Positions 3,457-31,951 are shown, counted from the stretch's first letter. The stretch: DNA of 32,000 bases from Trichlorobacter lovleyi SZ (GCF_000020385.1 NC_010814.1:720001-752000), one strand, 5' to 3'. Notes: generated from the letters alone by a model not told the origin. Numbers and translations are program-made.

Positions 3457-5603
3457 GCCTGTTTCCCCAGGTAGCGTATCGCCAGCATGGTAATGTCATC
3501 CGACTGCGGTGCGCCGTTGGCAAAGACCTGTACCTCGGTCCGGATGGCATGGATGATCTGTTCCGGCGTTGCAGCGGGGTGTGTAGCCACACAATCAAGC
3601 AGACGCTTTTCACCATACTCTTCAAGGCTCGGATTGACCGCCTCGTTTACGCCGTCAGTGTAGAGCAGGAACAGTTCGCCCGGCTGCAGTGTGATCTGCT
3701 CGGTCCGGTAGCTGATATCCGGCATCGGGCCGAGCACAAAACCGGGGGAGAAACTGTGGTAGGTGGTGCCGGTGCCAGTCTTCTGGATCAACGGCGGCAG
3801 GTGCCCGGCATTGGCGCAGTCAAGTTGTCCGGTGTCGGTATCCAGAATGGCACAGAAGACGGTTACAAACATGGAGGTCTCGTTGTCCAGGGCCAGGATG
3901 GAGTTGGTCCGTTCCAGAATCTGGGCCGGATTTGCATCACGCAGCGCCTCACTCTTGAGCAGCGTCTTGGCCACCATCATGTAGAGGGCCGCAGGCACCC
4001 CTTTATCGGAAACATCACCGATGATCAGGCAGATCCTGCGCTGATCCAGGAAGAAGAAATCATAGAAATCCCCTCCCACCTCCTTGGCCGGTTCCATCAG
4101 GGCAAACAGATCAAACTCGCTGCGATCGGGAAAGGGAGGGAAGATACGTGGCAGCAGTGAGGCCTGGATATCGGTGGCCAGTTTCAGCTCGCTCTGAATC
4201 CGTTCCTTGGCGGCCGTGGTCTCGGTCAGATCATGGATGTAGCGGGACAGGTCAGCCGCCATACGGTTAAAGGTCTCGCCCAGCTGCTGTATCTCGTCGC
4301 CGCTCTGCACCTGCAACCGGTGTTCCAGATTGCCGTTACCGATGATTTCTGCACCGCTCTCCAACTCAAGGATCGGCGCCGTGATCTTGTGTGCCACGCG
4401 ACGGGAGACAATGGTGACGCCGCCGAGCAACAGTAGAAACACGGCCGTCATAATCACCATGGTGACGCCGATCTGGCGATACACCAGGCTGCTGGCGGCC
4501 TGGGTCTGGGTCAGTATGGCCTGTTCGGTGGGCCGGATCGGGGCGTAGACCGCTTCAACCGGCAGGGCAAAAAGTACCGACCAGCCGGTGGTGCTGATCG
4601 GGGCGTAGGCCACAAAGCTGTCCTGCTTGTTGAGTATGCCGCGCATGATGCCGGGGTTGCCCGATGCAAGATTCTTGTCCAGCAGCGGCATCGCCTTCTG
4701 GTCGTCAAAGGAGAAGAAGGTCTCCTTCTGACGTTGGTTCCAGAGATCGCTGCTGGTATCCAGCCCTTCCCGTGCCAGAATACGGCGGTCCTGCGAAACC
4801 ATATAGGCCTTGCCCTGGTTGTTGAGCCGCATCTTGATGATCCGTTCCTGAATGGTGGTAAGCGGTACATTCAGGCCGATTACAGCAACGATCTTTTTGT
4901 TCTTCATGACCGGGGCAGAACAGTTGACCCGCAGATTGCGGGCGATGACCCCTACATACGGCTCGCTCCAGCCCAACTTGCCGCTTTTCAGTGCCCTGGT
5001 GAACCAGTCCCGTTTGCGTACGTCATAGGCGGCATCGATGTTTGATGACCAGGGGAAACGCCGGAACAGCCCCTGCGGTGTGGCCAGGTTGCAGTCGTTG
5101 ATGACCGAGTTACTCTTCAGGACCGAGATCATGAAGTCATCCATGGCGGATGATGTCTGCAGTTCCGCGGCAACAGCACGTGCCGATACACCTTGCGGAA
5201 TCTGCCAGACAGAGGCGGCCTTCGGGTCCGGCGGCTGTTCGCCAATGGAGTAGGAACGTTTGTGGGGGTAGATGCCGGGTGTCTTCCAGATCCGCTCGGC
5301 GCTGTCCACCAGCACCTTGAGATCATTTTCCACATCCCGGAACTGGGCATCGATCAGTGCCGCCTGGTCAACTGTGGCCTTGAGCAGTCCTTCCTGGCTC
5401 AGACTTTCAAGTGACCCCTTGCTGATCTTGAGCAGTTCCTGACTGAGCCCTATGGTTCCCTTAAGCGAAGAGTTTCCCAGTTGTCTCATGCTCAATAACG
5501 ACACCAGACCGAAACAAAGCAGGGATATGACGGCCGTACCCAGCAGGGCGTACAGGATACGGGTTCTGATGTTTTTAGGGCGGAATCGCCTGCGATTCGT
5601 CAT
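3453..5603 (-). CDS. Membrane sensor phosphatase: Cache-like periplasmic domain, HAMP, SpoIIE/PP2C (RsbU-type), 716 aa
   Basis: It has an N-terminal TM segment, a roughly 300-aa extracytoplasmic region, a second TM segment and a HAMP domain (APILELESGAEIIGNGNLEHRLQVQSGDEIQQLGETFNRMAADL). The PP2C motifs are EVGGDFYDFF, GDVSDKGVPAALYM, NAGH and DDITMLAI. Confidence 0.85.
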   Translation of the reverse strand: MTNRRRFRPKNIRTRILYALLGTAVISLLCFGLVSLLSMRQLGNSSLKGTIGLSQELLKISKGSLESLSQEGLLKATVDQAALIDAQFRDVENDLKVLVDSAERIWKTPGIYPHKRSYSIGEQPPDPKAASVWQIPQGVSARAVAAELQTSSAMDDFMISVLKSNSVINDCNLATPQGLFRRFPWSSNIDAAYDVRKRDWFTRALKSGKLGWSEPYVGVIARNLRVNCSAPVMKNKKIVAVIGLNVPLTTIQERIIKMRLNNQGKAYMVSQDRRILAREGLDTSSDLWNQRQKETFFSFDDQKAMPLLDKNLASGNPGIMRGILNKQDSFVAYAPISTTGWSVLFALPVEAVYAPIRPTEQAILTQTQAASSLVYRQIGVTMVIMTAVFLLLLGGVTIVSRRVAHKITAPILELESGAEIIGNGNLEHRLQVQSGDEIQQLGETFNRMAADLSRYIHDLTETTAAKERIQSELKLATDIQASLLPRIFPPFPDRSEFDLFALMEPAKEVGGDFYDFFFLDQRRICLIIGDVSDKGVPAALYMMVAKTLLKSEALRDANPAQILERTNSILALDNETSMFVTVFCAILDTDTGQLDCANAGHLPPLIQKTGTGTTYHSFSPGFVLGPMPDISYRTEQITLQPGELFLLYTDGVNEAVNPSLEEYGEKRLLDCVATHPAATPEQIIHAIRTEVQVFANGAPQSDDITMLAIRYLGKQA

Positions 5604-5710
5604 GATGTGCCGGCACCTTTAGCGTTAGAATGTCATGCGTTGAGAGAGGTTATGTCAATAGTACTACTTGTACAATCTATTTCCAGAAAGTTGTTGCTGC
5701 GGGAGTTGTC

Positions 5711-6820
5711 TTACAACAGCTTCAACGCTACGCCGATGCCGGGTCCGGGGGCGCCCAGATCAAACCTGCCGCTCTGATCCAGATAGGGACTGCGACTGAG
5801 CGGGCCGTTGATAAAGAAGGTGGTGTCCAGGTCAATCACCTCAAAGCAGCCCAGGGTGGCGGCAAAATGGGCTGCGGCGGTAATGGCCAGGCTGCTCTCC
5901 ATCATGGCCCCCAGCATCAGTTTGATGTTGTTGCGGCAGGCCAGCTCGGCAATCCTGACCGACTCAGTGATACCGCTCTTCATAAATTTGATATTGATGG
6001 CATTGACCGCTTTCAGCGCGACTGCCAGCTCTGCAGCTGCCAGGGAACCGACACTTTCGTCGGCACAAATCAGCATGCCGCTACCGGCAAACTCCCGCGT
6101 AATGGCAGCCAGGCCGTCCCAATCCCCCTTGGGTACCGGTTGTTCCAGCAGGTCGGGGCGGATGCCGTGCTGTTCCAGCTGTTGCAGGAAACGCCGCATG
6201 CCGGTAGCATCAAAGCCCATGTTGGCATCCAGCACCAGGCAGCTGTCGGGTGCGATTCGTTTGACCGCCAAGACCCGCTGCAGGTCCAGCTCATGGTCTT
6301 TGCCCACCTTGATCTTGAAGGCGGTGAAGCCCTGTCCGGCATAGTGGCGGGCAGCGGTTTCCGCCTCCTCCAGGCTGCCGATTACGATGGTGATGTCACT
6401 TTGAAAGCGTGGTCTGGCCGCACAACCCGGCGCAGCACTGAACAAGGCGCCAAACGGTATGCCCCGGCTGCGGCTGGCCAGATCGAACAGCGCCATCTCA
6501 AAGGCGGCCAGGGCAGCATGGTTGCCGACAAACAGGGGCCGAAACTCCTCAATCAGTTCAACCGGATCGTTGCCGTTGCGTCCGGCCAGTTGCGTTGCCG
6601 CTTTTTGCAGGTTGGCCAGCGTTTGCTCCACGGTTTCGCCGGTAATATGACTGGCAACCGCGGCCTCGCCGTAACCGCAGGTTCCATCATGAGCCTTTAG
6701 CTGGAAAAAGACGTTTTCCAACTGGTCGTGCTGGCCGGTGGCGATCCGGAACGGCGTGTTCAGCGGTGCGGTGATGACAGCGGCGTGAGCGTGCCTGATA
6801 ATGATATGATCCATGCTCAT
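5711..6820 (-). CDS. Enolase-superfamily dipeptide epimerase (L-Ala-D/L-Glu epimerase-like), 369 aa
   Basis: It shows the mandelate racemase/muconate lactonizing enzyme pattern: FKIKVG, LDANMGF, LEQP and ADES acid/base and metal-ligand blocks. The N-terminal capping domain reads PFRIATGQHDQLENVFFQL. RBS AAGGA. Confidence 0.8.
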   Translation of the reverse strand: MSMDHIIIRHAHAAVITAPLNTPFRIATGQHDQLENVFFQLKAHDGTCGYGEAAVASHITGETVEQTLANLQKAATQLAGRNGNDPVELIEEFRPLFVGNHAALAAFEMALFDLASRSRGIPFGALFSAAPGCAARPRFQSDITIVIGSLEEAETAARHYAGQGFTAFKIKVGKDHELDLQRVLAVKRIAPDSCLVLDANMGFDATGMRRFLQQLEQHGIRPDLLEQPVPKGDWDGLAAITREFAGSGMLICADESVGSLAAAELAVALKAVNAINIKFMKSGITESVRIAELACRNNIKLMLGAMMESSLAITAAAHFAATLGCFEVIDLDTTFFINGPLSRSPYLDQSGRFDLGAPGPGIGVALKLL

Positions 6821-8719: not shown

Positions 8720-9811
8720 TCAGCCCTGCTTCAGGGTCACCGTCACCCTGTTTATTTCTTCACAGCGCTGGTAGTCGATCTGCTGTGCCAGGTGGGTGAT
8801 GATATTCAGCCCCAGCTCATCGGGCAGGCGGTCTTTATCCAGCAGGTTGACCGCCTCTCCCCGGTTCTCCAGAATGATCTCCAGGCTCTCCTTCTTTTCA
8901 GAATAGGCGATGGTCAGGTCAAGGGCGGTTGTGGCCAGCAGCGGGGTATGGATCTGCAGCAGTTCTTCCACCAGCAGCAGCAGGTTGTGCCGGGTCTTTC
9001 TGGGCAGGATCTGCCGTTCGCAGAAGATCTCGATCTCCGCATTCATGGCATACAGGTCATAGTCAGCTGAGCTGATGCAGTAGTTGAAGCTGCGGATCCG
9101 GTTGATAAAGGCCCTGGTCTTTTCCTTCTGAGGGTTTTCAAAGATCTGCTGCGGGGTGCCCTCTTCATAGATCAGGCCTTCGTCCATGTAGAGCACCCGG
9201 CTGGAGACATCACGGGCAAAGTCCATCTCATGGGTGACGATCAGCATGGTCATGCCGTCCTTGGCCAGTCTGCGGATGACCGCCAGTACCTCGCTGACCA
9301 TGGTGGGGTCAAGGGCCGAGGTCGGTTCGTCAAACAGGATGATCTCCGGGTTCATGGCCAGGCAGCGGGCAATGGCCACCCGCTGTTTCTGACCACCGGA
9401 CAGTTCATCGGGGAAACTGTCGGCCTTTTCAGCCAGCCCCACCAGTTTGAGGATCTCCAGGGCCTTCTGTTCTGCTTCCTGTTTGTTGATCCCCAGCAGC
9501 CTGACCGGACCGATGGTCAGATTTTCCAGGGCGGTCAGGTGGGAGAAGAGGTTGAAGGATTGAAAGACCATGTTCATCCGCTGCCGGATCCTGGGGATGT
9601 CGCTCTTTTTGTCCAGCAGGTCGATCCCGTCCACGGCGATTGATCCGCCGCTGGGTTGTTCCAGCAGGTTGAGACAGCGCAGGAAGGTGGATTTGCCGGT
9701 GCCGGACGGTCCGATGATGGAGATGACTTCTCCCTTGGCAACGCTGAGGGAGATGTCTTTCAGTACGGTGACCTCACCGTAGGTCTTTGAGAGGTGTGCT
9801 ACCCTGATCAT
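8720..9811 (-). CDS. Polar amino-acid ABC transporter ATP-binding protein (GlnQ-like) with an uncharacterised C-terminal extension of about 120 aa, 363 aa
   Basis: It has Walker A GPSGTGKS, signature LSGGQKQR, Walker [12 protein letters not shown] and H-loop VTHEM. About 120 further residues follow the usual end (...TRAFINRI). Its ATG overlaps the permease stop as ATGA (9808-9811). Confidence 0.9.
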
Positions 9812-12075
9812 GCCCTGCCTGCCTTTCTCTTTTTGTATTTGGGATCAGTGATCCGTTCCAGGTACTCAAGGGATTGCATCAGTGTCCATGAGATCAGGAA
9901 GTAGAGGATGGCCACCATGACCAGGGGAAAGAAGGCGTCAAAGGTGCGGCTGCGGATGATGTCGCTGGCCTTGGTCAGATCCTGTACGGCGATGTAGCCG
10001 ACAATGGAGGTCATCTTGACCAGGGAGATGAACTCGCCTTTGTAGACCGGCAGGATCCGCCGCACCATCTGGGGCAGCACAATATGCAGGAAGGTGCTGG
10101 TCCTGGTGAAGCCCAAAGAGATACCAGCCTCGGTCTGTCCCTTTTCCACCCCTTCAATGCCGGTCCTGAAGATCTCGGCGGTGTAGGCGCCGAAGTTCAT
10201 GCCAAAGGCGATCACCGCCACAATGACCGGGTTGATGTTGATCGAGGCAAAGACGACATAGAAGATCAGCATCAACAGCACCAGTACCGGTGTGCCCCGC
10301 AGGATGGCGATGTAGAGCCTGGCAGGGGCAGAGAGCAGCCTGCTCTTTGCCATCCGCATGAAGCAGATCAGCGCCCCCAGCAGGGTGCCGAAGAGGGTGG
10401 CGAAGACCGAGATGACCACGGTGGTCTTGAGACCGTCCAGGATCAGCAGATACCGCCTCTCATGGATGATGTTGCTCTGAAAACTGGTGACAAGGTCGCT
10501 GAAAAAGGAGGGGGTGACCACCTTGGGACTGTCGCTTTTGATGGCAGACTCAGCAATATTCTTTTTCAGTGCAAAGACGCTGGCCCCCAGTTCGTAGTAC
10601 GGGTCTGAAAAGGCGACCTGCTTTTTACGCTCGTCAGTAATCATCAGGGTGCTGAAGATGGCGTCGATCTTGTTGGTTGAGGCGGCGGCGATCAGGCTGC
10701 CAAACTCCATGTCGGCAAAAACCGGCTCCTTGCCCAGCCAGGCGGCAAACCGTTCAGCCAGTTCAACATCAAAGCCGATCATTCTGTTGTCTTTCATGAT
10801 GGTAAACGGCATCCCTTTGTCACTGACAATGCCGATCACCAGTCGGCCCTTGCTCTTTGCCCCGTCAACTTTCGGCATCCGGGTACTGCCCTGCAGGATC
10901 CAGCGGGTGACCATGTCGTTAAACAGGCCGCTTCCCCTGATCTGCTTCAGGAAACTGTTGAACTGAGTACGCAAGGTGTCGTTGGTCTTGTTGAAGCCGA
11001 CGCCGATCGGCACGGAAAAGAGCGGTTTGCCCAGCAGCGCCAGCTCGGGGTCCTGCCGCAGCACTTCCAGCAGGGTCTCGTGGGTATAAAAGGCTGCATC
11101 TACCTTGCCGGACTTGACCGCCAGCACCAGGTCGGAGGGGCTTTTGTACTGCAGGACGGTGGCCCGGGGATACTGTTTGGTGGCGTAGGTGTCATGGACC
11201 GAGCCCAGCAGTACGCCGATCCGTTTGTCCTTCAGATCATCGGCAGAGCTGAGTTTAGTGGCTCCGCTTTGGCTTGCGGGCGGTGTAACGCCGGGCTTCC
11301 TGACCAGCATGACCTGGGCATTGGCAAAGTAGGGTTGGGTGAAGTTGACTGTTTTTTTGCGTTCAGCGGTGGCGGTCATACCACTGATAATCAGGTCGAT
11401 CTTGCCTGACTGCAGGGCCGGTATCAACGCCATGAATTTCATGTTCAGGAACTCGATCGGGCGGTTGAGCCTGATGCTGACCCAACGGGCCAGTTCGCCG
11501 TCATGACCGCTGATCCGGCCGCTCTTGTCCACAAAGCTGAGCGGCTCACGGGTGGCACATACCCCGATTTTCAGCGGCTTACCTGCTGTGGGCAGGGGAA
11601 GATCCGGCTCTTGATAGGGGCTCAAGTCATCTTTGAACCAGCGCTTTTTCATGGCGGCAAGAGTACCGTCCGCCTGCAACTCGGCAATGACCCGGTTCAG
11701 GTCCGCCAGCAGCTGTTCCTCCCCCTTTCTGAGGGCGATGGAACTGTCTTCATTACTGAGCGGTTCCTGTTTCAGGAAGGTAAATTCCCGGTTGAGCTTG
11801 GCGACCTGCAGTGCGGTCGGATAGGCCGTGACGATCGCCTCCAGCTGCCCTGATTTCATGGCAGCCACCGCATCCATCACGTCATCAAAGCTCTTGACCT
11901 GAGCCCGGGGAAAACGCTCTTTGGTAATCTGTTCGCCGGTTGTGCCGATCATGACGCCGATCCTGGCGGTTTTGGCATCATCCAGTGTGGTGATCGGCTT
12001 TTCCTGTTTCCTGCAACCGCTGCTGCAGGCAAGGAACAGCAGCAGCGCCATAATTGTCAGTAATGCCCGTTTCAT
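9808..12075 (-). CDS. Fused amino-acid ABC substrate-binding domains (SBP_bac_3 halves in the order C-N-C-N) plus permease domain, 755 aa
   Basis: A signal peptide is followed by four half-SBP segments recognisable against GlnH. The His/Glu/Gln/Arg-type TMD follows ([11 protein letters not shown]...[42 protein letters not shown]-type loop). Confidence 0.9.
9814..10494. repeat. 681-bp segment, copy 1 (permease-domain coding region), 678/681 identical to 30407-31087
   Basis: Direct base-by-base comparison finds differences only at 9952, 9954 (CGC versus AGA, both Arg) and 9988 (GCC versus GCG, both Ala). Confidence 0.95.
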
Positions 12076-12185
12076 ACCGCAACCTCATGTTTCAGGGACT
12101 GTCGCTTCTGTACCGCCACCCGGTGACCGGCCATGCCGGCTACCGGGGTCGGGACATCGCTACCGGTAGGCTTGCTGCTGCTGTC

Positions 12186-12203
12186 TTGCGTCTTGCATGC
12201 CAT
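12186..12203 (-). promoter_or_regulatory. Candidate sigma-54 (-24/-12) promoter upstream of the SBP-permease/ATPase operon
   Basis: The minus strand reads ATGGCATGCAAGACGCAA. GG and GC are separated by exactly 10 nt, the -24 half is TGGCAT and the -12 half is ACGCA (weaker). It lies about 100 nt upstream of the ATG at 12075. No GCCAAC dyad lies upstream. Confidence 0.35.
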
Positions 12204-12212
12204 GTTTTGCTC

Positions 12213-14687
12213 CTAAGGATAGGTTATTTTCGGTGTCAGGTAGAGAACCGGATGGTAATGGAAGGTTGCAAAAGGGTTCCAGCTATAGGCGGCAGTGCCC
12301 TGCGTCAGGGTGAAAAAGGCATAGTCACCGTATTTTCTGTCACCGTTTGCATCCAGCCCCATGAAGTTGCTCATGCCGATGTAGTGGTCCGACCCGCTCA
12401 GGACAGCGCTTCGCAGCACCGTCGGGTCGGTTGACCATTCACTGTCGAGCAACGCCGTTACGATGATCCAGAGGGCATCCCAGGCCGGGTAGGCGTAAAG
12501 CGCGGGGATACCGTTATAGGCCTCCCGGATGTCGTCCCGGATAACCAGCTTTGTAATCGAGTTCGGCTGGGGCGCGTGCTGGATAAAGACATGCTCGATC
12601 GGGCAGGTGAAGCTGCGTGCCGCAGCATAGGCTGCTGCTGCAGGGGTTGCTGCAAGCCGTTCATTCTGGGCCGATCCGTCGCTGCCGTACCACTTTACCG
12701 TGGCAAGGGAGGGGTACGCGGGGGCCTGGAGAAAGATCTCGGTGATTTCATCAAAGGAGGCGGTCAACACTGCGGTACTTGCCGGTGTAGCCGAGTTCAG
12801 GGCACCGGCAAGGGTGGCCAGCTGGCCGGCAAAATTGACGGTGTCCGTCGGATAGGTGACGCTGGTCATGATCGTTCCGCCCAGCGCCTGAAATTCACTG
12901 GCGGTACGGCTTGCCAGATCCGTTCCCCAGATGTCGTTGCGGGCCATGATTGCCAGGGAGCGCACCCCCTGTTCATACAAGAGCATGGCCAGGGCCTGGG
13001 CCTCAAGCGTTGCGCTCGGTACAAAACGGATCAGGTTGTCGCCGGGTTGTGCCAGCTGGATGGCATTACTTGACGGACTGAGCAGGATGACACCGCGGCT
13101 GTTGGCTGCCGATAGCACCCGCTGGCACTCAGCGCTGGTCACCGGACCGACAATGAACCTGATCCCGCGATCAGCCAGTGTCGTAAAACCGGCCAATGCC
13201 TGGTCGGCATCGGAGCCGGTGTCGATAATGTCCAGCGCTATCTTGACCGGATAGCCGTGCCGGGTGAGGTAGGTGTTGATGTTGTCACATGCTGCCACCA
13301 GGCCGGCCCTGATTGAGCGGCCATTGTAGGATTGGCTGCCGGTCAGACTCAGCAGGGCGCCGATCCTGACCTCTGCCGCGGGAGGGGTGAGCCCCTTCAG
13401 AACCGGCTCTGAGACATCGATAATCTTCGGGGTTGCCTGCTGTTCGTACTGATAGGCGGCCTTGAGTTGCCAGGCATAGCTGCTGCCGTTTGCCGCGATG
13501 CTGTAGAAGGCATAGTTACCTTTGTTCATGTCGCCTGCCGCATTCATTACCAATGCGCCGTTCAGCCCGACGTTGCTCTTTGCAGTAGCGACCAGCCCTG
13601 TTTTCAGTGTTTCGGTATCGGCATTGATACCGCTGGCGGTGTAGGTCTTGGCGGTCAGCCACAACGCATCCCAGGTGGCGAAGGTGGTGCTGTCGGCCTG
13701 ACGGCCGAGCTGTTGCGAAAGCTTTTCGCGCAGTGCGCGGTCGATCAGTACGGTGCCCGGCAAAGGCAGCACCACATCTTCCCTGCTGAAGATCGGAGAC
13801 AGCAGGTTGGTCTGCGCCGCAAAGGCGGAGGCGGTGGCTGAAGCGGTAATCAGGGGGGAGAGGGTTGAGGCATCGCTGCCGAACCAAGCGGCTTGTGCCA
13901 GCGACGGCCTGCTTGCTGCAGCGTTCAGCAGGGCAACCGAGTCGGTCGGATAGGAAATCATCACCACCGCCACCTTGCCGGCTCCATGGGTGGTTAATGC
14001 CTGTGAAACCTGGGCGGCTGCCTGATCAAGCTCCGAGTCATACGCGCCGGCGCCGGGAGCATAACGGACACCGCTCAATACCGTGCCACCGCCGGTCTGG
14101 AAGGCGGTGGTGATGCTTGTCTTGAGGTCATCACCCCAGACATCGCCGCGCCAGACCGGAACCATTGCCGTGAATCCCTTTTTCAACATCAAGGCGGCTG
14201 TACCGGCCCCCTGGCTGTTGTCGTTGGGCATCAGCCGGAACAGGTTATCACCGGCGATGGCCAGCGAGGTTGCGGTACTGGCCGGACTTATCAGGATCAT
14301 GCCCAGCGAGTTTGCCATCGGCAGGATCGCCGCACACTCGGCACTGCTGACGGGACCGATGACAAACCTGATCCCCTGGGCCTTGAGCGCCAACAGGGCC
14401 AGCAAAGCCCCTTGCGGATCGGAGGCCGTATCTTTCACCACGGTTGTGAGCCTGAAATTCTGCCCTTCCAGAGTAAGCCGCCGGTTTACCTGGGGCAGGC
14501 CGACCGTAAGTGCCGCCTGCATCCCTTCCCCGATATGTTTCAGGCTGCCGGTGAGCGGCGCCAGGACACCGATCGATATGGTCTGGGGCGTGCTGCTGGA
14601 GGATGAAGAAGATGATGAACAGCCCCCCTGTACCAGCAGGGTGCAGAGTAACAATATCTGCAGCAGCAAAAACGGACGGATTTTCAT
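12213..14687 (-). CDS. Tandem-duplicated LivK/Peripla_BP_6-type binding lipoprotein with poly-Ser tether, 824 aa
   Basis: A signal peptide plus GGC is followed by S9. Two homologous modules follow (IGVLAPLTGSL...GIRFVIGPVSSAECAAILPMANSLGMILISP and IGALLSLTGSQ...GIRFIVGPVTSAECQRVLSAANSRGVILLSP). RBS AAGGAG. Confidence 0.8.
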   Translation of the reverse strand: MKIRPFLLLQILLLCTLLVQGGCSSSSSSSSSTPQTISIGVLAPLTGSLKHIGEGMQAALTVGLPQVNRRLTLEGQNFRLTTVVKDTASDPQGALLALLALKAQGIRFVIGPVSSAECAAILPMANSLGMILISPASTATSLAIAGDNLFRLMPNDNSQGAGTAALMLKKGFTAMVPVWRGDVWGDDLKTSITTAFQTGGGTVLSGVRYAPGAGAYDSELDQAAAQVSQALTTHGAGKVAVVMISYPTDSVALLNAAASRPSLAQAAWFGSDASTLSPLITASATASAFAAQTNLLSPIFSREDVVLPLPGTVLIDRALREKLSQQLGRQADSTTFATWDALWLTAKTYTASGINADTETLKTGLVATAKSNVGLNGALVMNAAGDMNKGNYAFYSIAANGSSYAWQLKAAYQYEQQATPKIIDVSEPVLKGLTPPAAEVRIGALLSLTGSQSYNGRSIRAGLVAACDNINTYLTRHGYPVKIALDIIDTGSDADQALAGFTTLADRGIRFIVGPVTSAECQRVLSAANSRGVILLSPSSNAIQLAQPGDNLIRFVPSATLEAQALAMLLYEQGVRSLAIMARNDIWGTDLASRTASEFQALGGTIMTSVTYPTDTVNFAGQLATLAGALNSATPASTAVLTASFDEITEIFLQAPAYPSLATVKWYGSDGSAQNERLAATPAAAAYAAARSFTCPIEHVFIQHAPQPNSITKLVIRDDIREAYNGIPALYAYPAWDALWIIVTALLDSEWSTDPTVLRSAVLSGSDHYIGMSNFMGLDANGDRKYGDYAFFTLTQGTAAYSWNPFATFHYHPVLYLTPKITYP

Positions 14688-14759
14688 CGTAGCACTCCTT
14701 GCAATTGACTGCGGCGCAACTTGATTGCGCTGCAGGGGAATTAGACTAATTGCAGCTTG

Positions 14760-15947
14760 TTATGCAGTATTCCCGGGTTTCAGGAGCCGCTGTTTCATGG
14801 CGATGATCCTGCGACTGGCCTGTTCGATCCGCTCCCGGGGGATTCTGCCCTGCTGTACCAGATTCAGCAGCAGCTCAATGGTGCGGGGCATGATATCGGG
14901 GCTGTAGAGCTTGTCATTCGCCACCACCAGCAGGTCAACCCCGGCATTGATCGCCTTCTCCACAGCGGTTTCGTAGCTGTAATGCTGGATAATCGCCCCC
15001 ATGTAGAGGTCGTCGCTGACCACCACGCCATCAAAACCGAGCTGTTTGCGCAGGATGCCGTCAATGGTGGCCCTGGAAAGCGTGGCGGGATGGTCCGGGT
15101 CGATGGCGGTATTGAAGGTGTGGGCGGTCATGACCATATCACACAGCCCCTGACTGATCAGATCGCGGTAGGGCTGCAGCTCGTTTTCATGCCAGTAGCG
15201 GGTCACATCCACCAGTCCCAGGTGCGAGTCATCCCGGGAGCTGCCATGGCCGGGGAAGTGCTTCAGGCAGGTCAGGATATGGTGGCGGTGGTGGCTCTTG
15301 ATGAACTCGGCGGCATGGGCCGCTACCAACGCCGGGTCAGCCGAGAAACTGCGCTCTTTAAAGGCGATTACCGGGTTATCCGGGTTCGTTGCCAGGTCAA
15401 CCACCGGCGCCAGGTTCAGGTTGAAGCCGTATTCATCCAGCGTTGCCGCGAGGTTTTCGCTGGATGAACGGGTCAGGTCCAGCCGGTTCTGTTGTCCCAG
15501 ATATTTGGCCGAGACCGTGGCAGGAAAACCGTAGCGGTCTTTCAAACGGGCGACCACCCCTCCTTCCTGATCCACCGCAATCAAGAGCGGCAGTTCAGAG
15601 GCCTGCTGCAGGGCGGTGGTCAGCTGCTTCAGCTGGGCCGGGGCTGTGATATTGCGGCCGGTTACCCCAAGGTCGATGTTGTTGTCAAACAGCACCACCC
15701 CACCTGCGCCGTAGCGGCGGATGGCCTGATCAATCGGGCTGTCCGGTTCCAGGGTCTCGCCGGGAAAGCCCAACAACAGCATCTGGGCGATCTTGCGCTC
15801 CAGCGGCCAGCTCTGCAGGTCCGGCGGCAATGTCTTGACGGCTGTGCTGCGGGTGACGGCACAGCCGCCCAGCAGGCCGGGCAGCAGCAATGAAGCGCCG
15901 GTCAGGGCGCTGTTTTGAAGAAAGGTACGGCGTGTGCAGGAAAACAT
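14760..15947 (-). CDS. Exported glycoside hydrolase family 3 (NagZ-like beta-N-acetylhexosaminidase), Tat signal plus lipobox, 395 aa
   Basis: The start is chosen at ATG 15947 (GAGG RBS), giving MFSCTRRTFLQNSALTGASLLLPGLLGGC. The GH3 N-domain motifs are DQEGG, KHFPGHG and VVSDDL. Confidence 0.8.
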   Translation of the reverse strand: MFSCTRRTFLQNSALTGASLLLPGLLGGCAVTRSTAVKTLPPDLQSWPLERKIAQMLLLGFPGETLEPDSPIDQAIRRYGAGGVVLFDNNIDLGVTGRNITAPAQLKQLTTALQQASELPLLIAVDQEGGVVARLKDRYGFPATVSAKYLGQQNRLDLTRSSSENLAATLDEYGFNLNLAPVVDLATNPDNPVIAFKERSFSADPALVAAHAAEFIKSHHRHHILTCLKHFPGHGSSRDDSHLGLVDVTRYWHENELQPYRDLISQGLCDMVMTAHTFNTAIDPDHPATLSRATIDGILRKQLGFDGVVVSDDLYMGAIIQHYSYETAVEKAINAGVDLLVVANDKLYSPDIMPRTIELLLNLVQQGRIPRERIEQASRRIIAMKQRLLKPGNTA

Positions 15948-16154
15948 GGTGCCTCGTTTGTTTGTGGAATCGGGATTGCTACCGTTGTTCTGTCCGGATC
16001 TGTACATCGGGCCAGACCGCTGCACTGGTAGCTATGATGTCTAACACAGTGTAACAGATAGTTTGTTGTCGGCACTCCCTAGGGCGAAATGGGGGGCACC
16101 GGCAGAGCCGGGCCGCCCTGCAGATCTACTTGTTTTGCAGCCTTGAGGGCAATT

Positions 16155-16905: not shown

Positions 16906-18084
16906 TCAGGCAAACAGGCGTCCCTTCAGTGCCATGATACGCCGGTAGGACTGATCAATCCGTTGTTCGGATATCCTGCCGCTGTTCACCAGATCAACCA
17001 CATGATTAATGGTGGTGGGGGTGATCTCGGGATCATACTCCAGGTTGTTGGAAACCAGGATAATATCCACCCCGGCCAGGATACTTTTTTCGACAATGGT
17101 CTTGTAATCAAAGAACTGGGTCAGCCCCTGCATCTGCAGGTCATCGGTTACCACCACCCCGTTAAACCCCAACTGTTCACGCAGTATGCCGGTGATGAAC
17201 GGTTGTGAGAGGGTTGCGGGCAGATCAGGATCAATATGCCGGTTAAAGACATGGGCGGTCATCACCATCCTGGCCTTGTCTGCGTTGATCAGATTCCGGT
17301 ACGGCTCAAGTTCAACAGCCGACCAGGTATCGGTCACATCCACAAACCCCAGATGGGAGTCGGCGGTGGCGCTGCCGTGGCCGGGGAAATGTTTGAAACA
17401 GGTGGCGACCCGGTTTGCGTCGTGGGTCTCCACAAAGATCCGGGCATGGTTGGTGACAATGGACGGATCTGCGGAAAAACTGCGCTCCAGTGCGCCGATG
17501 GCCGGGCTTTGGGGGTTGATGTTCAGGTCAACCACCGGTGCAAAGTTCATGTTCAACCCGTTTGTTGCCAGAGTGGCACCGATACTGTCGGCATACAGCC
17601 GGGTAACCGCCGGGTTATTGAGGGTGCCGAGCTGCTGGGCCGAGACCGTGGGGGGAAAGCCGTAGCTCTCCTTCAGTCGCACGATTTTCCCCCCCTCCTG
17701 ATCAACGGCAATGAAGAGCGGGGTGGCGGAAAGTGTGCGCAGCTGGGCCGTCAGCCCTTGCAACTGCTCCGGCGAAACGATGTTGCGCCCGTAGGTCTTA
17801 AGCTTTGCATCCCGGTCAAAGAGGATGGTTCCGCCGATACGGTAGTCGCGGATGTCCCGGACAATGTAGTTGCTGTCATCCAGGGTCAGACCGCGGAAGC
17901 CCACCATCAGCATCTGGGCTATCTTCTGTTCCAATGGAACATCCCCTGATGAACTGCCGCAGCCGGCCATCAGGGACGGGAAGGCGGCCACCGTACCGGC
18001 CAGGGCGGCACCTTTCAGAAAGGTGCGGCGGCTGCAGGGCGGCAGCGGTGTGCTGCCTGATGATGACTGGTCGGACTGTTCCAT
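16906..18084 (-). CDS. Exported GH3 (NagZ-like) paralog, Tat signal plus lipobox, 392 aa
   Basis: The signal region is SRRTFLKGAALAGTVAAFPSLMAGC. It is a clear paralog of 14760-15947 (FAPVVDLNINPQSPAIGALERSFSADP, KHFPGHGSATADSHLG). Confidence 0.8.
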   Translation of the reverse strand: MEQSDQSSSGSTPLPPCSRRTFLKGAALAGTVAAFPSLMAGCGSSSGDVPLEQKIAQMLMVGFRGLTLDDSNYIVRDIRDYRIGGTILFDRDAKLKTYGRNIVSPEQLQGLTAQLRTLSATPLFIAVDQEGGKIVRLKESYGFPPTVSAQQLGTLNNPAVTRLYADSIGATLATNGLNMNFAPVVDLNINPQSPAIGALERSFSADPSIVTNHARIFVETHDANRVATCFKHFPGHGSATADSHLGFVDVTDTWSAVELEPYRNLINADKARMVMTAHVFNRHIDPDLPATLSQPFITGILREQLGFNGVVVTDDLQMQGLTQFFDYKTIVEKSILAGVDIILVSNNLEYDPEITPTTINHVVDLVNSGRISEQRIDQSYRRIMALKGRLFA

Positions 18085-18119: not shown

Positions 18120-18500
18120 TTAGAAGAAACCCGCCGGGGTACTTGAGCCCACGGTGACACCGCCCTGTTTGTCCACGGTAACAACGTAGTCTTTCAGCAG
18201 CTTGGGAACTGGCTCCTGATACTCCTTCAATACTGCCTTGCTGGGATCGGTACCGTCGGTGGTGTTAACCACCTTGATCTGGTTGACCGCTTTTACCGGT
18301 GATCCCAGCCCCGGCTTGGAGCTGTTGGGGTTGATGATCTCCGGACTGTTTTTGCTGCCGTCGCTGAATTTGACGCCGACGACGAGTACGAAATTTGAGT
18401 TGTTGATGACCTTGACCATACCGGCTTCGGCGCTGCCCAGACTGCACAGTGCGGTTGTCAGCAGGGTGGCGAATGCGGTGATGAGGGTTGTCTTTTTCAT
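18120..18500 (-). CDS. Small exported protein, 126 aa
   Basis: RBS AAGGAG. The signal peptide is MKKTTLITAFATLLTTALCSLGSAEA. The mature protein starts GMVKVINNS, a VKVxN motif shared with 7003, 23401 and 24410. Confidence 0.7.
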   Translation of the reverse strand: MKKTTLITAFATLLTTALCSLGSAEAGMVKVINNSNFVLVVGVKFSDGSKNSPEIINPNSSKPGLGSPVKAVNQIKVVNTTDGTDPSKAVLKEYQEPVPKLLKDYVVTVDKQGGVTVGSSTPAGFF

Positions 18501-18695: not shown

Positions 18696-18712
18696 AGCAA
18701 TAGCTGTGCCAA
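18696..18712 (-). promoter_or_regulatory. Sigma-54 promoter (-24/-12)
   Basis: The minus strand reads TTGGCACAGCTATTGCT, a full match to TGGCAC-N5-TTGCT. The -24 G is at 18709 and the -12 C at 18697. The predicted TSS is near 18685, 185 nt before the ATG at 18500. Confidence 0.7.
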
Positions 18713-24065: not shown

Positions 24066-24338
24066 CTATTTCAACGTGCCGTTCCAGCAAAACCAGCCAC
24101 TCTTTGAATCGTACGCCTTGCCGCTGGCGTTCAACTGCGCCTGAAGGGCCGACGTCAGAAGATAGTACTGAATATAGTTGGACTGTACGGTATCGACTTT
24201 CAGGAAACTGCCTCCTATACCGCCGCTCCCGCAGTACTTGGAATTTCCACTTCCAACGCACAGACAGGTTGTTGCGCTGGCCGGTACGCCAGCCAGCAGA
24301 GCCGCGAACATAAGTGATCCGATGATTGTTTTCTTCAT
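24066..24338 (-). CDS. Small exported 4-Cys protein, 90 aa (family B)
   Basis: The start is ATG 24338 (AGGAGA RBS). The signal peptide is MKKTIIGSLMFAALLAGVPASA. The 68-aa mature part is 49/68 identical to that of 30070-30348 by hand alignment. Confidence 0.7.
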   Translation of the reverse strand: MKKTIIGSLMFAALLAGVPASATTCLCVGSGNSKYCGSGGIGGSFLKVDTVQSNYIQYYLLTSALQAQLNASGKAYDSKSGWFCWNGTLK

Positions 24339-24380
24339 GACATGTCTCCTGTTGTAGTAGTTGTTGCCCACCCCATCAAC

Positions 24381-24397
24381 TGCAGATGGCATGCCGA
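24381..24397 (-). promoter_or_regulatory. Sigma-54 promoter (-24/-12) for the family B gene
   Basis: The minus strand reads TCGGCATGCCATCTGCA, with GG-N10-GC spacing exact. It is very similar to the 28726 promoter (TTGGCATGCAATCTGCT). The predicted leader is about 32 nt. Confidence 0.55.
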
Positions 24398-24409
24398 TAA
24401 CTGCGAAAA

Positions 24410-24832
24410 TCAATACATGCTCCATACCCAGGTCATGGGAGGATTGTAGGGAGGTTTATCGGTCTTGGTATTTGGATCTGTTGGCTTGACTTCAACACGA
24501 TGGTTCCAGCACTGCGCGCCGAGATAGCCGGACTCCAGTGCTTGATAATAATCAGGTGCGCCCCCCCAATAATTTCTGGCAACATAGATGTTCACGCGTG
24601 TCGGGCAGTAGTCAAAAATGTAAGAGTCCAGCTTGCAGGTTCCTCCGCCGATATAGTCCCCATAATAATAACCACTGCATTTCAGCGTTTCCCCAAGCCA
24701 TGTTTGCTGGTACACCTCGTACCTCAACTGGTGGCCGGTGCTGTTGACGATTTTTACCTCCCACGCAGCTGCCTCAACCACGCACAACAGCAGCAGACAA
24801 AGCGCCAGCAAACATACCTTACGTCTGTTCAT
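24410..24832 (-). CDS. Small exported Cys-containing protein, 140 aa
   Basis: ATG 24832 lies 9 nt after GGGAG. The signal peptide is MNRRKVCLLALCLLLLCVVEAAA. The mature protein starts WEVKIVNST. DYCPTRVNIYV and AQCWNHRVEVKP resemble family C motifs. Confidence 0.65.
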   Translation of the reverse strand: MNRRKVCLLALCLLLLCVVEAAAWEVKIVNSTGHQLRYEVYQQTWLGETLKCSGYYYGDYIGGGTCKLDSYIFDYCPTRVNIYVARNYWGGAPDYYQALESGYLGAQCWNHRVEVKPTDPNTKTDKPPYNPPMTWVWSMY

Positions 24833-28300: not shown

Positions 28301-28684
28301 TCATCGTTTAGCCGCTTTGAATATTATTTCACACGCAGCACTCTTGCTCGTTCTAGGCTTTATAGTCGGAAGAGGCAACATGTCCAGCTTTAGAAAGAGG
28401 GCTGTATTTATTTGATTATCGGGGATTGTGCAGCCGAATTCGGTGTTGTCTGGTGATATAGCAGAACAGGTATACGTAAGAGCCTTCTCCGGCGACTGGT
28501 TTTTATAAAGCTTGGCAGTGAAGCTTTGCCATTTGCCCCAGTTCCAAAAATGACGCCAAGAACTAAGCTCTGTAACGTTAAGATCACAGGATATTTCTCC
28601 GTTAGACCAGTCGGCAGCCTGCGTGGCAGGGGCTGCTGCAAAGAGCGACACTATCAAAAGTGCGGTAATAGACAGTTTTTTCAT
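28301..28684 (-). CDS. Small exported protein, 127 aa (family A)
   Basis: The start is ATG 28684, 5 nt after GGGGG. The signal peptide is MKKLSITALLIVSLFAAAPATQA. FWNWGKWQSF and ACEIIFKAA are shared with 18882-19322. Confidence 0.7.
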   Translation of the reverse strand: MKKLSITALLIVSLFAAAPATQAADWSNGEISCDLNVTELSSWRHFWNWGKWQSFTAKLYKNQSPEKALTYTCSAISPDNTEFGCTIPDNQINTALFLKLDMLPLPTIKPRTSKSAACEIIFKAAKR

Positions 28685-28725
28685 GGCAGCCCCCTTTTTT
28701 GAAACTGACAAGCTACTTTTGATTC

Positions 28726-28742
28726 AGCAGATTGCATGCCAA
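28726..28742 (-). promoter_or_regulatory. Sigma-54 promoter (-24/-12)
   Basis: The minus strand reads TTGGCATGCAATCTGCT. The -24 G is at 28739 and the -12 C at 28727. The predicted TSS is near 28715, giving a 31-nt leader. Confidence 0.7.
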
Positions 28743-28821: not shown

Positions 28822-30048
28822 CTACTCCATGCCCAGCCGCTTCAGCTTCTTGCGCAGCCCCTCGCGGCTCATTCCCAGCCGTTCTGCTGCCTGGGTCTTG
28901 TTGCCTTTGGCCTCTTTCAGCGCCTGCTCGATCAGCTGTTTCTCTGAATCCTTCAGCAGTGATTTTCCCCCGGCTGCTGGTAGAGTGGTCTGCTGCTGCA
29001 GCGGATCAGAAAGGTCGGTCATGGTAATGGTGTCGCCGTAGGCCAGTGCCACAGCCCGCTCAATTTCGTTATCCAGTTCACGCACGTTGCCGGGCCAGGT
29101 ATAGCCGCGCAGCCGTTCCAGCGCCTCTTTGGCAATCCGCATCGGCGGCCTGCCGCAACTGCGGCCCCACTTCTCCAGAAATTGGCGTGCAATCAGGTCA
29201 ATGTCGCCTTTACGTTCCCGCAGGGGCGGAATCCGCAGGGTAACGCCGTTCAGGCGGTAGTAGAGATCCTCCCGGAAGCTGCCTTTGGCAATCTCTTTGG
29301 TCAAATCGCGGTTGGTAGCGGCAATGATCCTCAGATCAACCGGGATGGCGGTCCGGCTGCCGACCCGTTCCAGGGTCCGCTCTTCCAGCACCCGCAAAAG
29401 TTTGGCCTGCAGTTGCAACGGCATCTCCCCCACCTCGTCCAGAAACAGGGTGCCGCCTTGCGCCTGCTGGATCTTGCCGATGCGGGCCTCGACCCCGGTG
29501 GCCACCCCCTTTTCAATGCCGAACATTTCGCTTTCAAAGATGGTCTCCGGGATGGCGGAACAGTTGACTGCCACAAACGGCTTGGCGCTGCGGGGGCTGT
29601 TGAAGTGGATCGCCTTGGCGAACAGTTCCTTGCCGGTGCCGGTCTCGCCGGTGATGATCACCGACAGGCGGGAATCGGCTATCCGTTCTGCCTTGCCGAT
29701 CAGCTCCCTGATCTGGGGGCTGGTGCCGAGGATGGAGGAAAAGGGAAAGGAACGGCGCAGGTTCTTTTTGAGGCTGCTGTTCTCGCGGGCCAGCTGTTCC
29801 CGGGCTGTGCGCAGTTGGAGTTCGGTTGCCCGAAGCTCTTCGATGATCTGCTCCAGCCGGTATTCCCGTGCCTCGACCTTGACCGCCATCATCCCGAACG
29901 ACTCGGCAAAGCGGGCGATCAGGGGGGGGTACTGGCCGCTTTTGGTCAGTTCGAAAATGTCGTTGTATTTACCGTAACGCCCCATGGAGAGGTCTTCGGC
30001 CACGGCGATCAGGCGATCAAGCAGCTGGTTGAGTGGAGTGTCGTGCAT
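28822..30048 (-). CDS. Sigma-54-dependent Fis-family transcriptional activator (bEBP) with a short non-receiver N-terminus and a variant L1 loop, 408 aa
   Basis: The AAA+ core has Walker A GETGTGKE, GGTLFLDEVGEMP and RVGS...IAATNRDL. The C-terminal Fis HTH is KTQAAERLGMSREGLRKKLKRLGM. The GAFTGA position reads GVATGV (29491-29508). The first 100 aa or so are coiled-coil-like with no REC/PAS/GAF pattern. Confidence 0.9.
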   Translation of the reverse strand: MHDTPLNQLLDRLIAVAEDLSMGRYGKYNDIFELTKSGQYPPLIARFAESFGMMAVKVEAREYRLEQIIEELRATELQLRTAREQLARENSSLKKNLRRSFPFSSILGTSPQIRELIGKAERIADSRLSVIITGETGTGKELFAKAIHFNSPRSAKPFVAVNCSAIPETIFESEMFGIEKGVATGVEARIGKIQQAQGGTLFLDEVGEMPLQLQAKLLRVLEERTLERVGSRTAIPVDLRIIAATNRDLTKEIAKGSFREDLYYRLNGVTLRIPPLRERKGDIDLIARQFLEKWGRSCGRPPMRIAKEALERLRGYTWPGNVRELDNEIERAVALAYGDTITMTDLSDPLQQQTTLPAAGGKSLLKDSEKQLIEQALKEAKGNKTQAAERLGMSREGLRKKLKRLGME

Positions 30049-30069: not shown

Positions 30070-30348
30070 TTACTTTAAGGTGCCGTTCCAGCAAAACCAG
30101 CCTGATTGGCCATCATAGGCCTTACCGGCACTGGCAAGCTCGCTTCGCAAGGCAATGGTTAGCAGGTAATAGTTAAGGTGGTTTTGAGAAACAGTATCAA
30201 CCTTGAGGAAAGAGCCGCCTATTGCCCCGTTTCCACAGCTTTTGGAGCTTCCGTAGCCGACGCACAGGCAGGTTGTGGCAGCGGCAGGCAGAACTGCAGA
30301 TACGGCAATCAGTACGGCTACAAAGATGATGCATGCTGTCATTTTCAT
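30070..30348 (-). CDS. Small exported 4-Cys protein, 92 aa (family B)
   Basis: RBS AAAGGGG and a signal peptide are present. The mature part is TTCLCVGYGSSKSCGNGAIGGSFLKVDTV...SGWFCWNGTLK. It ends 21 nt upstream of the EBP ATG. Confidence 0.7.
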   Translation of the reverse strand: MKMTACIIFVAVLIAVSAVLPAAATTCLCVGYGSSKSCGNGAIGGSFLKVDTVSQNHLNYYLLTIALRSELASAGKAYDGQSGWFCWNGTLK

Positions 30349-30403: not shown

Positions 30404-31951
30404 TTACCTGCCTGCCTTTCTCTTTTTGTATTTGGGATCAGTGATCCGTTCCAGGTACTCAAGGGATTGCATCAGTGTCCATGAGATCAGGAAGTAGAGG
30501 ATGGCCACCATGACCAGGGGAAAGAAGGCGTCAAAGGTGCGGCTTCTGATGATGTCGCTGGCCTTGGTCAGATCCTGTACCGCGATGTAGCCGACAATGG
30601 AGGTCATCTTGACCAGGGAGATGAACTCGCCTTTGTAGACCGGCAGGATCCGCCGCACCATCTGGGGCAGCACAATATGCAGGAAGGTGCTGGTCCTGGT
30701 GAAGCCCAAAGAGATACCAGCCTCGGTCTGTCCCTTTTCCACCCCTTCAATGCCGGTCCTGAAGATCTCGGCGGTGTAGGCGCCGAAGTTCATGCCAAAG
30801 GCGATCACCGCCACAATGACCGGGTTGATGTTGATCGAGGCAAAGACGACATAGAAGATCAGCATCAACAGCACCAGTACCGGTGTGCCCCGCAGGATGG
30901 CGATGTAGAGCCTGGCAGGGGCAGAGAGCAGCCTGCTCTTTGCCATCCGCATGAAGCAGATCAGCGCCCCCAGCAGGGTGCCGAAGAGGGTGGCGAAGAC
31001 CGAGATGACCACGGTGGTCTTGAGACCGTCCAGGATCAGCAGATACCGCCTCTCATGGATGATGTTGCTCTGAAAACTGGTGACAAGCTTGCTGAGGAAG
31101 GAGGGGGCGGATGGTGTTAAACTTTTGTTGGTTGCGATGTTCTTCTTCAGGGCAAAGGCCAGTGAATCGACCGTGTAATAAGGAGCGGAAAAGGCGACCC
31201 GTTTCTTGCGTTCTTCCGTGATGGCCAGGGGCGTGGCGATCATATCGATCTTATGGCCTGCCAGGGCGGCAATCTGACTGCCGAACTCTATGTCCGCGTA
31301 TTTGATGCTGCGGTTGCAGAAGGCACCGAAACGCTCCATCAGCTCGATATTAAAACCGATCAACCGGTTCTCTTTCATAACGATAAAGGGCAGCCCGTTG
31401 TCGCTTAGAATCCCCACCACCAGAGGTTTGCCGGTTCCGGCGGCGGTCAGCTTCGGCATCCCGACAGCGCCCTGCTGCATCCAGCGTTTGAGCATGCCGT
31501 CATAGGTGCCGTCCGTGCGGATCTGCTGCAGGAAACGGTTGAAAGAGAGGAGCAGCCCGGCATCCTGTTGATGAAAGGCAATGGAGATCGGCGTGCGGTA
31601 CAGGGGCCCTCCCACAAATCCGAATTCATCGTTGTCCCGCATATATTCCATCAGCTCATCGCGGCTGTAGATGGCGGCGTCTGCCTTGCCGCTCTTTAAT
31701 GCCAGCAGCATGTCGGAGACGGATTTGTACTGCAGCACCGTGGCCCCGGGATAGTGCCTTGTCGCGTACATTTCGTGGGTGGAACCCTGCAGCACGGCAA
31801 TCCGCTTGTCCTGCAGGTCGTTGGCGGTTGCCAGCATGCTGCGGGAGCCGGAGGTGGGCAGCTGGTTGCTGTTGCAGCCGCCTGCTGCGGTACATAGGAA
31901 CAGCACGGCCAGATAGATAAGCAATGAGGTGACCCGCATCGGTTTGTTCAT
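30404..31951 (-). CDS. Fused circularly permuted SBP_bac_3 domain plus amino-acid ABC permease domain, 515 aa; no adjacent ATPase gene
   Basis: A signal peptide/lipobox (LFLCTAAGGC) is followed by an SBP C-half (DLQDKRIAVLQGSTH...GTYDGMLKRWM). The SBP N-half follows (PLVVGILSDNGLPF...ITEERKKRVAFSAPYY). The TMD is identical in protein sequence to that of 9808-12075. Confidence 0.9.
   Translation of the reverse strand: MNKPMRVTSLLIYLAVLFLCTAAGGCNSNQLPTSGSRSMLATANDLQDKRIAVLQGSTHEMYATRHYPGATVLQYKSVSDMLLALKSGKADAAIYSRDELMEYMRDNDEFGFVGGPLYRTPISIAFHQQDAGLLLSFNRFLQQIRTDGTYDGMLKRWMQQGAVGMPKLTAAGTGKPLVVGILSDNGLPFIVMKENRLIGFNIELMERFGAFCNRSIKYADIEFGSQIAALAGHKIDMIATPLAITEERKKRVAFSAPYYTVDSLAFALKKNIATNKSLTPSAPSFLSKLVTSFQSNIIHERRYLLILDGLKTTVVISVFATLFGTLLGALICFMRMAKSRLLSAPARLYIAILRGTPVLVLLMLIFYVVFASININPVIVAVIAFGMNFGAYTAEIFRTGIEGVEKGQTEAGISLGFTRTSTFLHIVLPQMVRRILPVYKGEFISLVKMTSIVGYIAVQDLTKASDIIRSRTFDAFFPLVMVAILYFLISWTLMQSLEYLERITDPKYKKRKAGR
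30407..31087. repeat. 681-bp segment, copy 2, 678/681 identical to 9814-10494
   Basis: See copy 1. Identity stops abruptly at the TMD/SBP junction (31087/31088) and at the stop codon. Confidence 0.95.

Follow-up and report, generated by a model that had tools for sequence, protein, structure and literature searches.

How do two permease genes that lie 18 kb apart, and whose receptor-coding parts have diverged far from each other, come to encode almost the same membrane domain base for base? This question is raised by a 32,000-nucleotide stretch of DNA from Trichlorobacter lovleyi SZ (GCF_000020385.1 NC_010814.1:720001-752000), which is referred to here at its full length as the window, with positions counted from its first letter. 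Two genes of the window, designated A and B, encode membrane subunits of amino-acid ATP-binding cassette (ABC) importers and share a tract of 681 bp:

9808..12075, minus strand: gene A, permease of a polar amino-acid ABC importer, 755 amino acids (aa), with a lipoprotein signal, a BPD_transp_1 membrane domain, and, fused to the latter, an ectodomain of two SBP_bac_3 binding-domain equivalents.
30404..31951, minus strand: gene B, a paralogue of A with 515 aa, likewise with a lipoprotein-type signal, in which a single permuted binding-domain equivalent precedes a BPD_transp_1 membrane domain.

The membrane domain matches PF00528 (BPD_transp_1) and TIGR01726 in Pfam and NCBIfam, and contains the EAA coupling loop. 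Its predicted structure resembles homodimeric ArtQ (PDB 4YMS), with a TM-score of 0.80 normalised to the target and 36% identity in Foldseek. The ectodomains of both proteins match SBP_bac_3 and, in the PDB, amino-acid binding proteins, although the order of their parts is permuted. Taken together, these matches assign A and B to the subunits of type I ABC importers for polar amino acids (PAAT, of the GlnPQ/Art type), in which they are ancient paralogues. Orthologues of gene A were found at 34 loci in genome collections, those of B range in size from 501 to 518 aa, and the closest named relatives are Trichlorobacter (Geobacter) lovleyi and metagenome-assembled genomes (MAGs) of Geobacter. The answer that the data favour, and which we consider very probable, is that recurrent interlocus (ectopic) gene conversion homogenises the membrane-domain segments of A and B in the T. 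lovleyi clade, and that B is likely to dock the ATPase of A.

The tract and its surroundings comprise the following elements:

9814..10494, minus strand: tract copy of gene A (probable donor), the membrane domain in full (aa 528-754), with its EAA coupling loop (10069-10131) and C-terminal tail.
30407..31087, minus strand: tract copy of gene B (probable recipient), the membrane domain (aa 289-515), with its EAA loop at 30662-30724.
31088..31107, minus strand: 5' transition zone in B, with 16 of 20 positions the same in the equivalent zone of A (10495-10514).
30545..30581, minus strand: mismatch island of 37 bp, which holds all three A/B differences (AGA at 30545-30547, and GCG ending at 30581).

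The initial annotation had described a 681-bp match with three differences, and its exact positions and codons have been confirmed by an ungapped comparison. By alignment as well as by ungapped comparison, 678 of the 681 bases are the same, and the mismatches fall at positions 9952 and 9954 (CGC in A and AGA in B, both encoding Arg) and 9988 (GCC and GCG, both encoding Ala), which correspond to 30545, 30547, and 30581 in copy B. The abrupt limits noticed at the stop-codon region and at the junction between membrane and binding domains are also real. On the 3' side, the tract ends one codon ahead of the stop of B (A ends in ...GGC AGG GCA TGA and B in ...GGC AGG TAA), and on the 5' side it reaches to the first base of the LVTSFQ codons, that is, at aa 528 of A and aa 289 of B. 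Past this junction lies the 20-nt transition zone, which encodes the linker PSF(L/F)S(K/D) directly ahead of the first membrane-domain helix, and further out the DNA identity between A and B is only 45-75%. Outside the tract as a whole, identity is ~58% (~41% different at the DNA level).

The position of the breakpoint is supported by the maximum chi-squared test (max-chi2), which gave a value of 349 at the linker/membrane-domain junction. The highest value among permutations was 20.7, and none of the 1000 permutations reached 349; differences occur at a rate of 0.415 on the left side of the breakpoint and of 0.010 on the right side. A chance origin of this signal is excluded. The same contrast is found in the synonymous divergence (dS) between A and B, which amounts to 1.19 in the binding-domain part, where it is saturated, and to 0.013 in the core of the membrane domain, so that the receptor-coding parts are as clearly diverged in their DNA as had been proposed. 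Because synonymous divergence collapses within the tract, the similarity does not reflect constraint at the protein level. A window-wide repeat comparison detected no second long near-identical repeat or converted pair of paralogues in the window.

The three mismatches deserve separate consideration. The AGA state is also present in the B orthologue L044, and in the loci L041, L048, and L039, and the GCG state is found in L041, L048, L039, L040, and L003. The 37-bp island is probably a patch that was left unconverted or was re-imported, an interpretation that is preferred to three new mutations because two fresh mutations in one codon are unlikely.

A/B pairs from other genomes have been compared with that of the window. 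They are those of T. lovleyi CP058409, in which both genes are 26 kb apart in conserved synteny, of the 437-kb metagenome contig Ga0074199_1000018, in which they are 9 kb apart (L048 and L041), and of the loci L039/L040. All of the pairs are mosaics, in which identity is 85-99% in the core of the membrane domain and 40-75% over nearly the whole binding-domain part, and the max-chi2 breakpoint is located at the same place in the four of them (0 of 1000 permutations reaching it). The orthologous pairs of relatives therefore exhibit the opposite of a uniform divergence across the whole gene, as the three pairs outside the window are mosaics with the same 5' breakpoint. Their dS values follow the same pattern, being 1.54 in the binding-domain part and 0.18 in the membrane-domain core for CP058409, 1.39 and 0.15 for Ga0074199_1000018, and 1.18 and 0.24 for L039/L040. 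Orthologous membrane domains, with dS values of 0.19-0.51, are more divergent than paralogous ones within one genome.

Quartet analyses of informative sites in four genome-pair comparisons separate the two parts of the genes. In the binding-domain part, sites that group orthologues outnumber those that group genes of the same genome by 155:9, 180:14, 135:15, and 167:15, while in the membrane-domain core sites that group by genome outnumber those that group by orthologue by 21:0, 43:0, 44:2, and 36:0. Since core sites group by genome and binding-domain sites by orthologue, the A/B pairs are considered to undergo concerted evolution via recurrent gene conversion. The EAA loop itself illustrates this process, being of the FLH variant in the two copies of the window and of the FFQ variant in the two copies of CP058409. 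Among 114 membrane-domain sequences from genomes and metagenomes, the mosaic is restricted to the A/B pairs of this clade; no mosaics were found outside it, where the other near-identical pairs are plain orthologues. The earlier proposal of gene conversion, or of a replacement restricted to the membrane domain, is thus backed by the dS values of 1.19 and 0.013, by the max-chi2 test, and by the quartets.

According to these data, we infer the following course of events. The latest event in this genome would be very recent, and in it the membrane domain and C-terminal tail of A would have been copied over those of B, up to one codon ahead of the stop. In E. coli, RecA-dependent exchange needs roughly 20-30 nt of identity to be efficient. 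The longest exact match of A and B in their binding-domain parts, at 12 nt, is below this requirement, which is probably what keeps the tract out of these parts. Each event would renew the near-identity of the membrane domains, and in this way make the next event easier. The outcome would be two permeases with different receptors, which share an identical translocator and coupling helix, and B, lacking an ATPase gene of its own nearby, would most likely dock the ATPase encoded downstream of A. The shared 5' breakpoint would require no selective explanation, and the homogenisation would be a neutral by-product instead of a selected trait. Neutral, homology-driven conversion is more likely than a selected identity.

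The direction of the transfer can be read from the C-terminal tails. The native tail of B (...QAMGWLEQKTDRRR...) is found in CP058409, L041, L044, P0002, P0004, P0010, and P0042, and its longer form (...LMQAMGWLEQKTDRRR...) is a diverged homologue of the A tail, with ~45% DNA identity. The window copy of B carries an A-type tail, and the A orthologues share the tail type of both window copies. Because B orthologues keep their own tail while B of the window has that of A, gene A is the donor, at least for the tail, for which a transfer from A to B is demonstrated at the sequence level. The divergence of the native tails is an indication of how unlike the membrane domains would be without homogenisation. 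A lineage represented in three samples (L119-121) also has an A-type tail, and its binding domain is 90-97% identical to that of the native-tailed L041. In L119, the copy continues past the stop of A into CCATGATCAGAG, the first codons of the ATPase gene (~10 nt). This lineage is regarded as a second, independent event of the same kind.

The ATPase to which these codons belong is encoded directly downstream of A:

8720..9811, minus strand: ATPase gene, 363 aa, with a GlnQ/ArtP-like nucleotide-binding domain (aa 1-239) and a 124-aa C-terminal extension.

The ATG of this gene overlaps the stop codon of A (ATGA), and gene A is translationally coupled to it. Its best sequence match is chain J of 4YMS (ArtN/ArtP), with an E value of 2.7e-89. 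The 124-aa extension (8720-9091, aa 240-363) has no Pfam match and no PDB match at E <= 1e-30. It is kept behind the nucleotide-binding domain in 86 collected loci and may be a regulatory domain.

The observation that B lacks an adjacent ATPase gene holds both in the window and at the syntenic locus of CP058409. No ATPase (ABC_tran) gene was found in the 18 kb between B and A, which lie downstream of B (the window includes 49 bp upstream of it), nor within 10 kb on either side of B in CP058409. B-type permease genes without an adjoining ATPase gene are present in the window, CP058409, L119-121, and L122. The use by B of the ATPase encoded downstream of A is plausible, and would be the simplest reading of this arrangement. 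Identical membrane domains could also permit mixed A/B dimers.

Other loci show different arrangements. In L118 (SRR26543737_1851, 10001-12615), a B-type gene is followed by a 363-aa ATPase gene with an ATGA overlap, and the order of this merged locus is B, ATPase, sigma-54 activator, and free binding protein. L040 (Ga0074197_1001736, 3137-5775) likewise has a B-type gene and then a 363-aa ATPase gene with an ATGA overlap. Here, sequence that flanks B on the left is connected to sequence that flanks A on the right, as a result either of a crossover deletion involving the two membrane-domain repeats or of a metagenome misjoin at this repeat. L040 was discarded as proof of a crossover deletion, since the misjoin explains it equally well. 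In L015 (from a Pelodictyon luteolum MAG, 9797-15584), permease genes of A size (~1000 aa) and B size (~520 aa) are arranged in tandem before one ATPase gene, and the membrane domains of this pair, which are 75% identical over 411 nt, are not homogenised.

Several points weigh against recurrent conversion with a shared ATPase. The direction is resolved for the tail only, as the core is already homogenised in all genomes, and loci L039 and L040 come from one sample, which does not prove that they belong to one genome. The ATPase inventory is that of the loci examined, and a second ATPase, possible elsewhere in the genome, would bear on the sharing part of the explanation. Because the tandem pair of L015 is only 75% identical, identity is not needed for ATPase sharing, and no selective reason for it is shown. 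Finally, no flanking homology is detectable at the 3' end of the tract, the stop codon being followed by unrelated DNA, and the 3' flank has been rearranged through the insertion of a 92-aa open reading frame (ORF). Two genes are located on this side of B:

30070..30348, minus strand: small secreted Cys-containing ORF, 92 aa, between B and the sigma-54 activator gene, and absent at this position in relatives.
28822..30048, minus strand: sigma-54-dependent activator with an AAA+ domain and HTH_8, a conserved downstream neighbour of B-type genes (L036, L118, and L119).

In relatives, the native B tail is followed 16 nt on by the sigma-54 activator gene. The 5' side of the tract ends in residual homology, and homologous resolution is thus not seen on both sides. 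Instead of a textbook two-sided conversion, the last event would have been one-sided, with an end formed illegitimately, or else a longer copy from which a part was later deleted. A search of the 355 bp downstream of B detected remnants neither of the native B tail nor of the ATPase gene, and matched only paralogues of the 92-aa ORF, which are located at about 24069-24338 and in other loci.

The second of these possibilities, in which a longer copy or a crossover brought the membrane domain of A together with its ATPase gene to B, and the extra ATPase gene was later deleted, would take the place of a short conversion tract. It is rather unlikely, yet it accounts for several of the observations. 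B-type genes directly before a 363-aa ATPase gene do exist (L118 and L040, with the ATGA overlap), L119 retains the first ~10 nt of the ATPase gene behind the stop of B, and the junction in the window is devoid of 3' homology. Nevertheless, no relic of an ATPase gene persists behind B in the window, L040 is perhaps an assembly chimera, and the event would still be a homologous A-to-B replacement begun in the membrane domain.

An adaptive explanation, to which we attach a similarly low probability, holds that identity is maintained by selection because A and B need to be able to replace each other on one ATPase or to form mixed dimers. The orphan status of B in the window, CP058409, L119-121, and L122 agrees with it, as do the homogenisation found wherever a sampled genome of the clade has both genes and the covariation of the EAA coupling-loop variants between paralogues. 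However, neutral, homology-driven conversion also predicts recurrence, and the limits of the tract coincide with the limits of sequence homology. Moreover, the tails have been left unconverted in several lineages without loss of the gene, the tandem pair that depends on one ATPase in L015 tolerates 25% DNA divergence, and the classical heterodimeric HisQ/HisM use one ATPase at low identity. A stronger form of this proposal, in which homogenisation keeps A and B interchangeable so that one ATPase dimer can work with A2, B2, or mixed A/B in a combinatorial importer, is more doubtful still. If it were true, the receptor complement of the importer, made of permuted, single-hinge domains, would be set by which paralogue is expressed, and B would possibly be coupled to the adjoining sigma-54 activator.

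An assembly artefact, in which a collapsed or chimeric repeat put one membrane-domain sequence into both genes, is very unlikely. Repeats of ~680 bp can indeed mislead short-read assemblers, the Logan contig L001 stops exactly at the repeat boundary, and L040, in which the repeat has the left-hand flank of B on one side and the right-hand flank of A on the other, is a possible chimera. In contrast, three sites distinguish the copies of the window, each of which is bordered by unique sequence at both ends, and protein A of the window is located on a single 3.92-Mb contig, which indicates a finished genome. Independent assemblies hold the same membrane domain with the A-type tail (L001, with the exact B protein, and P0001, 98% identical on a 153-kb contig), and the complete genome CP058409 and the 437-kb contig carry older versions of the mosaic, 95-97% identical, which a collapse cannot yield. 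In L001, obtained from an independent run, the membrane-domain DNA is 100% identical to that of A. This contig was not accepted as proof of full A/B identity in another strain, since a de Bruijn graph assembler can merge copies.

The weakest explanation, that strong purifying selection or codon bias kept the membrane domains similar without recombination, can point to the 64-92% amino-acid identity of this domain across phyla and to nonsynonymous divergence (dN) of ~0.02-0.05 between orthologues, but it is refuted by the dS and quartet results, as dS also collapses in the tract (0.013 against 1.19), orthologous membrane domains (dS 0.19-0.51) differ more than paralogous ones of the same genome, informative sites group by genome at 21-44 positions against 0-2, and unconverted counterparts are much less alike (75% identity for the paralogous membrane domains of L015 and ~45% for the native tails).

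Recurrent conversion between A and B has a known counterpart in the genes tufA and tufB of Salmonella and E. coli, whose concerted evolution by gene conversion is described by Paulsson et al. (2017; PMC5485169), according to whom the tracts extend processively up to the bounds of the homologous gene. As in that system, two dispersed paralogues on one chromosome are kept near-identical by non-reciprocal homologous transfer, and paralogues are closer within a genome than orthologues are across genomes. Unlike tufA/tufB, A and B are homogenised in one domain of a multi-domain gene, while the remainder is saturated; furthermore, they are not functionally redundant, as they have different receptors, and the latest tract lacks homology at its 3' end. 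The process, an ordinary form of interlocus gene conversion, is already known and does not constitute a new kind of system. Less usual is that it affects a single domain of a fusion gene, that it recurs from genome to genome, and that one of the copies is an orphan. A literature search for membrane-domain-specific conversion in ABC importers returned nothing specific.

Regarding the transporters themselves, A and B resemble GlnPQ from Lactococcus lactis (PMC8025302), whose tandem binding domains are fused to the membrane domain, in being type I importers of polar amino acids with N-terminal extracytoplasmic binding domains, a homodimeric membrane subunit, and a GlnQ-type ATPase, which is encoded next to A. 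They differ from it in their permuted binding domains (C-terminal half and then N-terminal half), in the extra 124-aa C-terminal domain of the ATPase, and in the existence of two permease loci with one ATPase gene nearby. Art(QN)2 from Thermoanaerobacter tengcongensis (4YMS) provides the best structural match of the membrane domain and the best sequence match of the ATPase. It also has a homodimeric membrane subunit, but, unlike A and B, it works with a free binding protein and has no fused ectodomain.

Sharing of components is known among ABC importers. The multitask ATPases MsmX (Bacillus) and MsmK (Streptococcus/Streptomyces) energise permeases encoded elsewhere, and the binding proteins HisJ and ArgT share one translocator, HisQMP. 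As in the MsmX and MsmK systems, permease B has no adjoining ATPase gene of its own, and sharing of an ATPase is plausible here too; as with HisJ and ArgT, more than one receptor serves a single type of translocator. Unlike A and B, those systems are carbohydrate importers with diverged permeases, and we know of no homogenisation of permease genes in them.

The A/B genes therefore provide a clean natural case of domain-restricted concerted evolution in bacteria, with tracts of differing ages and extents, and the pairs form a natural series in which to study how homology limits conversion tracts. Phylogenies of the permease domain, and the orthology calls derived from them, will mislead for fusion proteins of this type. 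In addition, B is a testable case of an orphan permease that may depend on the same ATPase as its paralogue A and possibly form dimers with A.

The binding domains fused to these permeases are also unusual in their architecture. The ectodomain of B (aa 26-290) aligns with canonical binding proteins first over their residues ~112-228 and then over ~12-100, and it aligns contiguously over the SBD1-SBD2 junction of tandem GlnPQ (6H30). In A, the ectodomain (aa 22-527) follows the order C-terminal half, full domain, and N-terminal half, which corresponds to two permuted units. A simple count of Pfam matches, giving three binding domains in A and two in B, was rejected in favour of domain equivalents, which give two and one. 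Each permuted unit would probably contain only one hinge crossover, with the connection to the membrane domain located where the other hinge would be. The AlphaFold model of B has confidence values (pLDDT) mostly of 77-95 across residues 41-270, and ~260 columns of it align to single bilobed binding-protein folds with a TM-score of ~0.5 (Foldseek). The family with permuted ectodomains is large, with 3840 matches at E<1e-30, and some relatives have a third binding unit and reach ~1000 aa. A literature search on permuted fused binding domains found nothing specific.

A separate observation concerns the receptor part of A. The orthologue of a very close strain, L038 (OFJB01001612.1), is 96-100% identical to A of the window except for one patch of ~75 nt in the binding domain, with 73% identity, which suggests a short imported or hypervariable receptor segment.

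The 92-aa ORF found downstream of B belongs to a family of secreted Cys-containing proteins of ~90 aa with no Pfam match. Members of it are encoded in the window at 30070-30348 and at 24066-24425 (both on the minus strand), as well as in L037 (712-987), L005, L022, L008, and L041, and the copy between B and the sigma-54 activator gene is present in this genome only. With respect to the activator, no sigma-54 promoter motif was found upstream of A, and the window includes only 49 bp upstream of B. Two good sigma-54 promoter-like motifs appear elsewhere on the minus strand, at 18697-18711 and 28727-28741 (TGGCAC-N5-TTGC and TGGCAT-N5-CTGC), the total of loose motifs in the window not being above chance. 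They precede small ORFs without an assigned function, at 18120-18500 and 28301-28711, and the motif at 28727-28741 is located just downstream of the sigma-54 activator gene.

Two further features of the region upstream of A can be mentioned. Two GH3 paralogues (14760-16025 and 16906-18084, both on the minus strand) are placed 2.1 kb apart around an alpha-acetolactate decarboxylase gene, and the segments repeated between them, with 70-80% identity, give no indication of conversion. The immediate upstream neighbour of A (12213-14687, minus strand) encodes a protein of 824 aa with two tandem Peripla_BP_6/ANF_receptor domains, of the branched-chain amino-acid type, and this neighbour is kept in CP058409.

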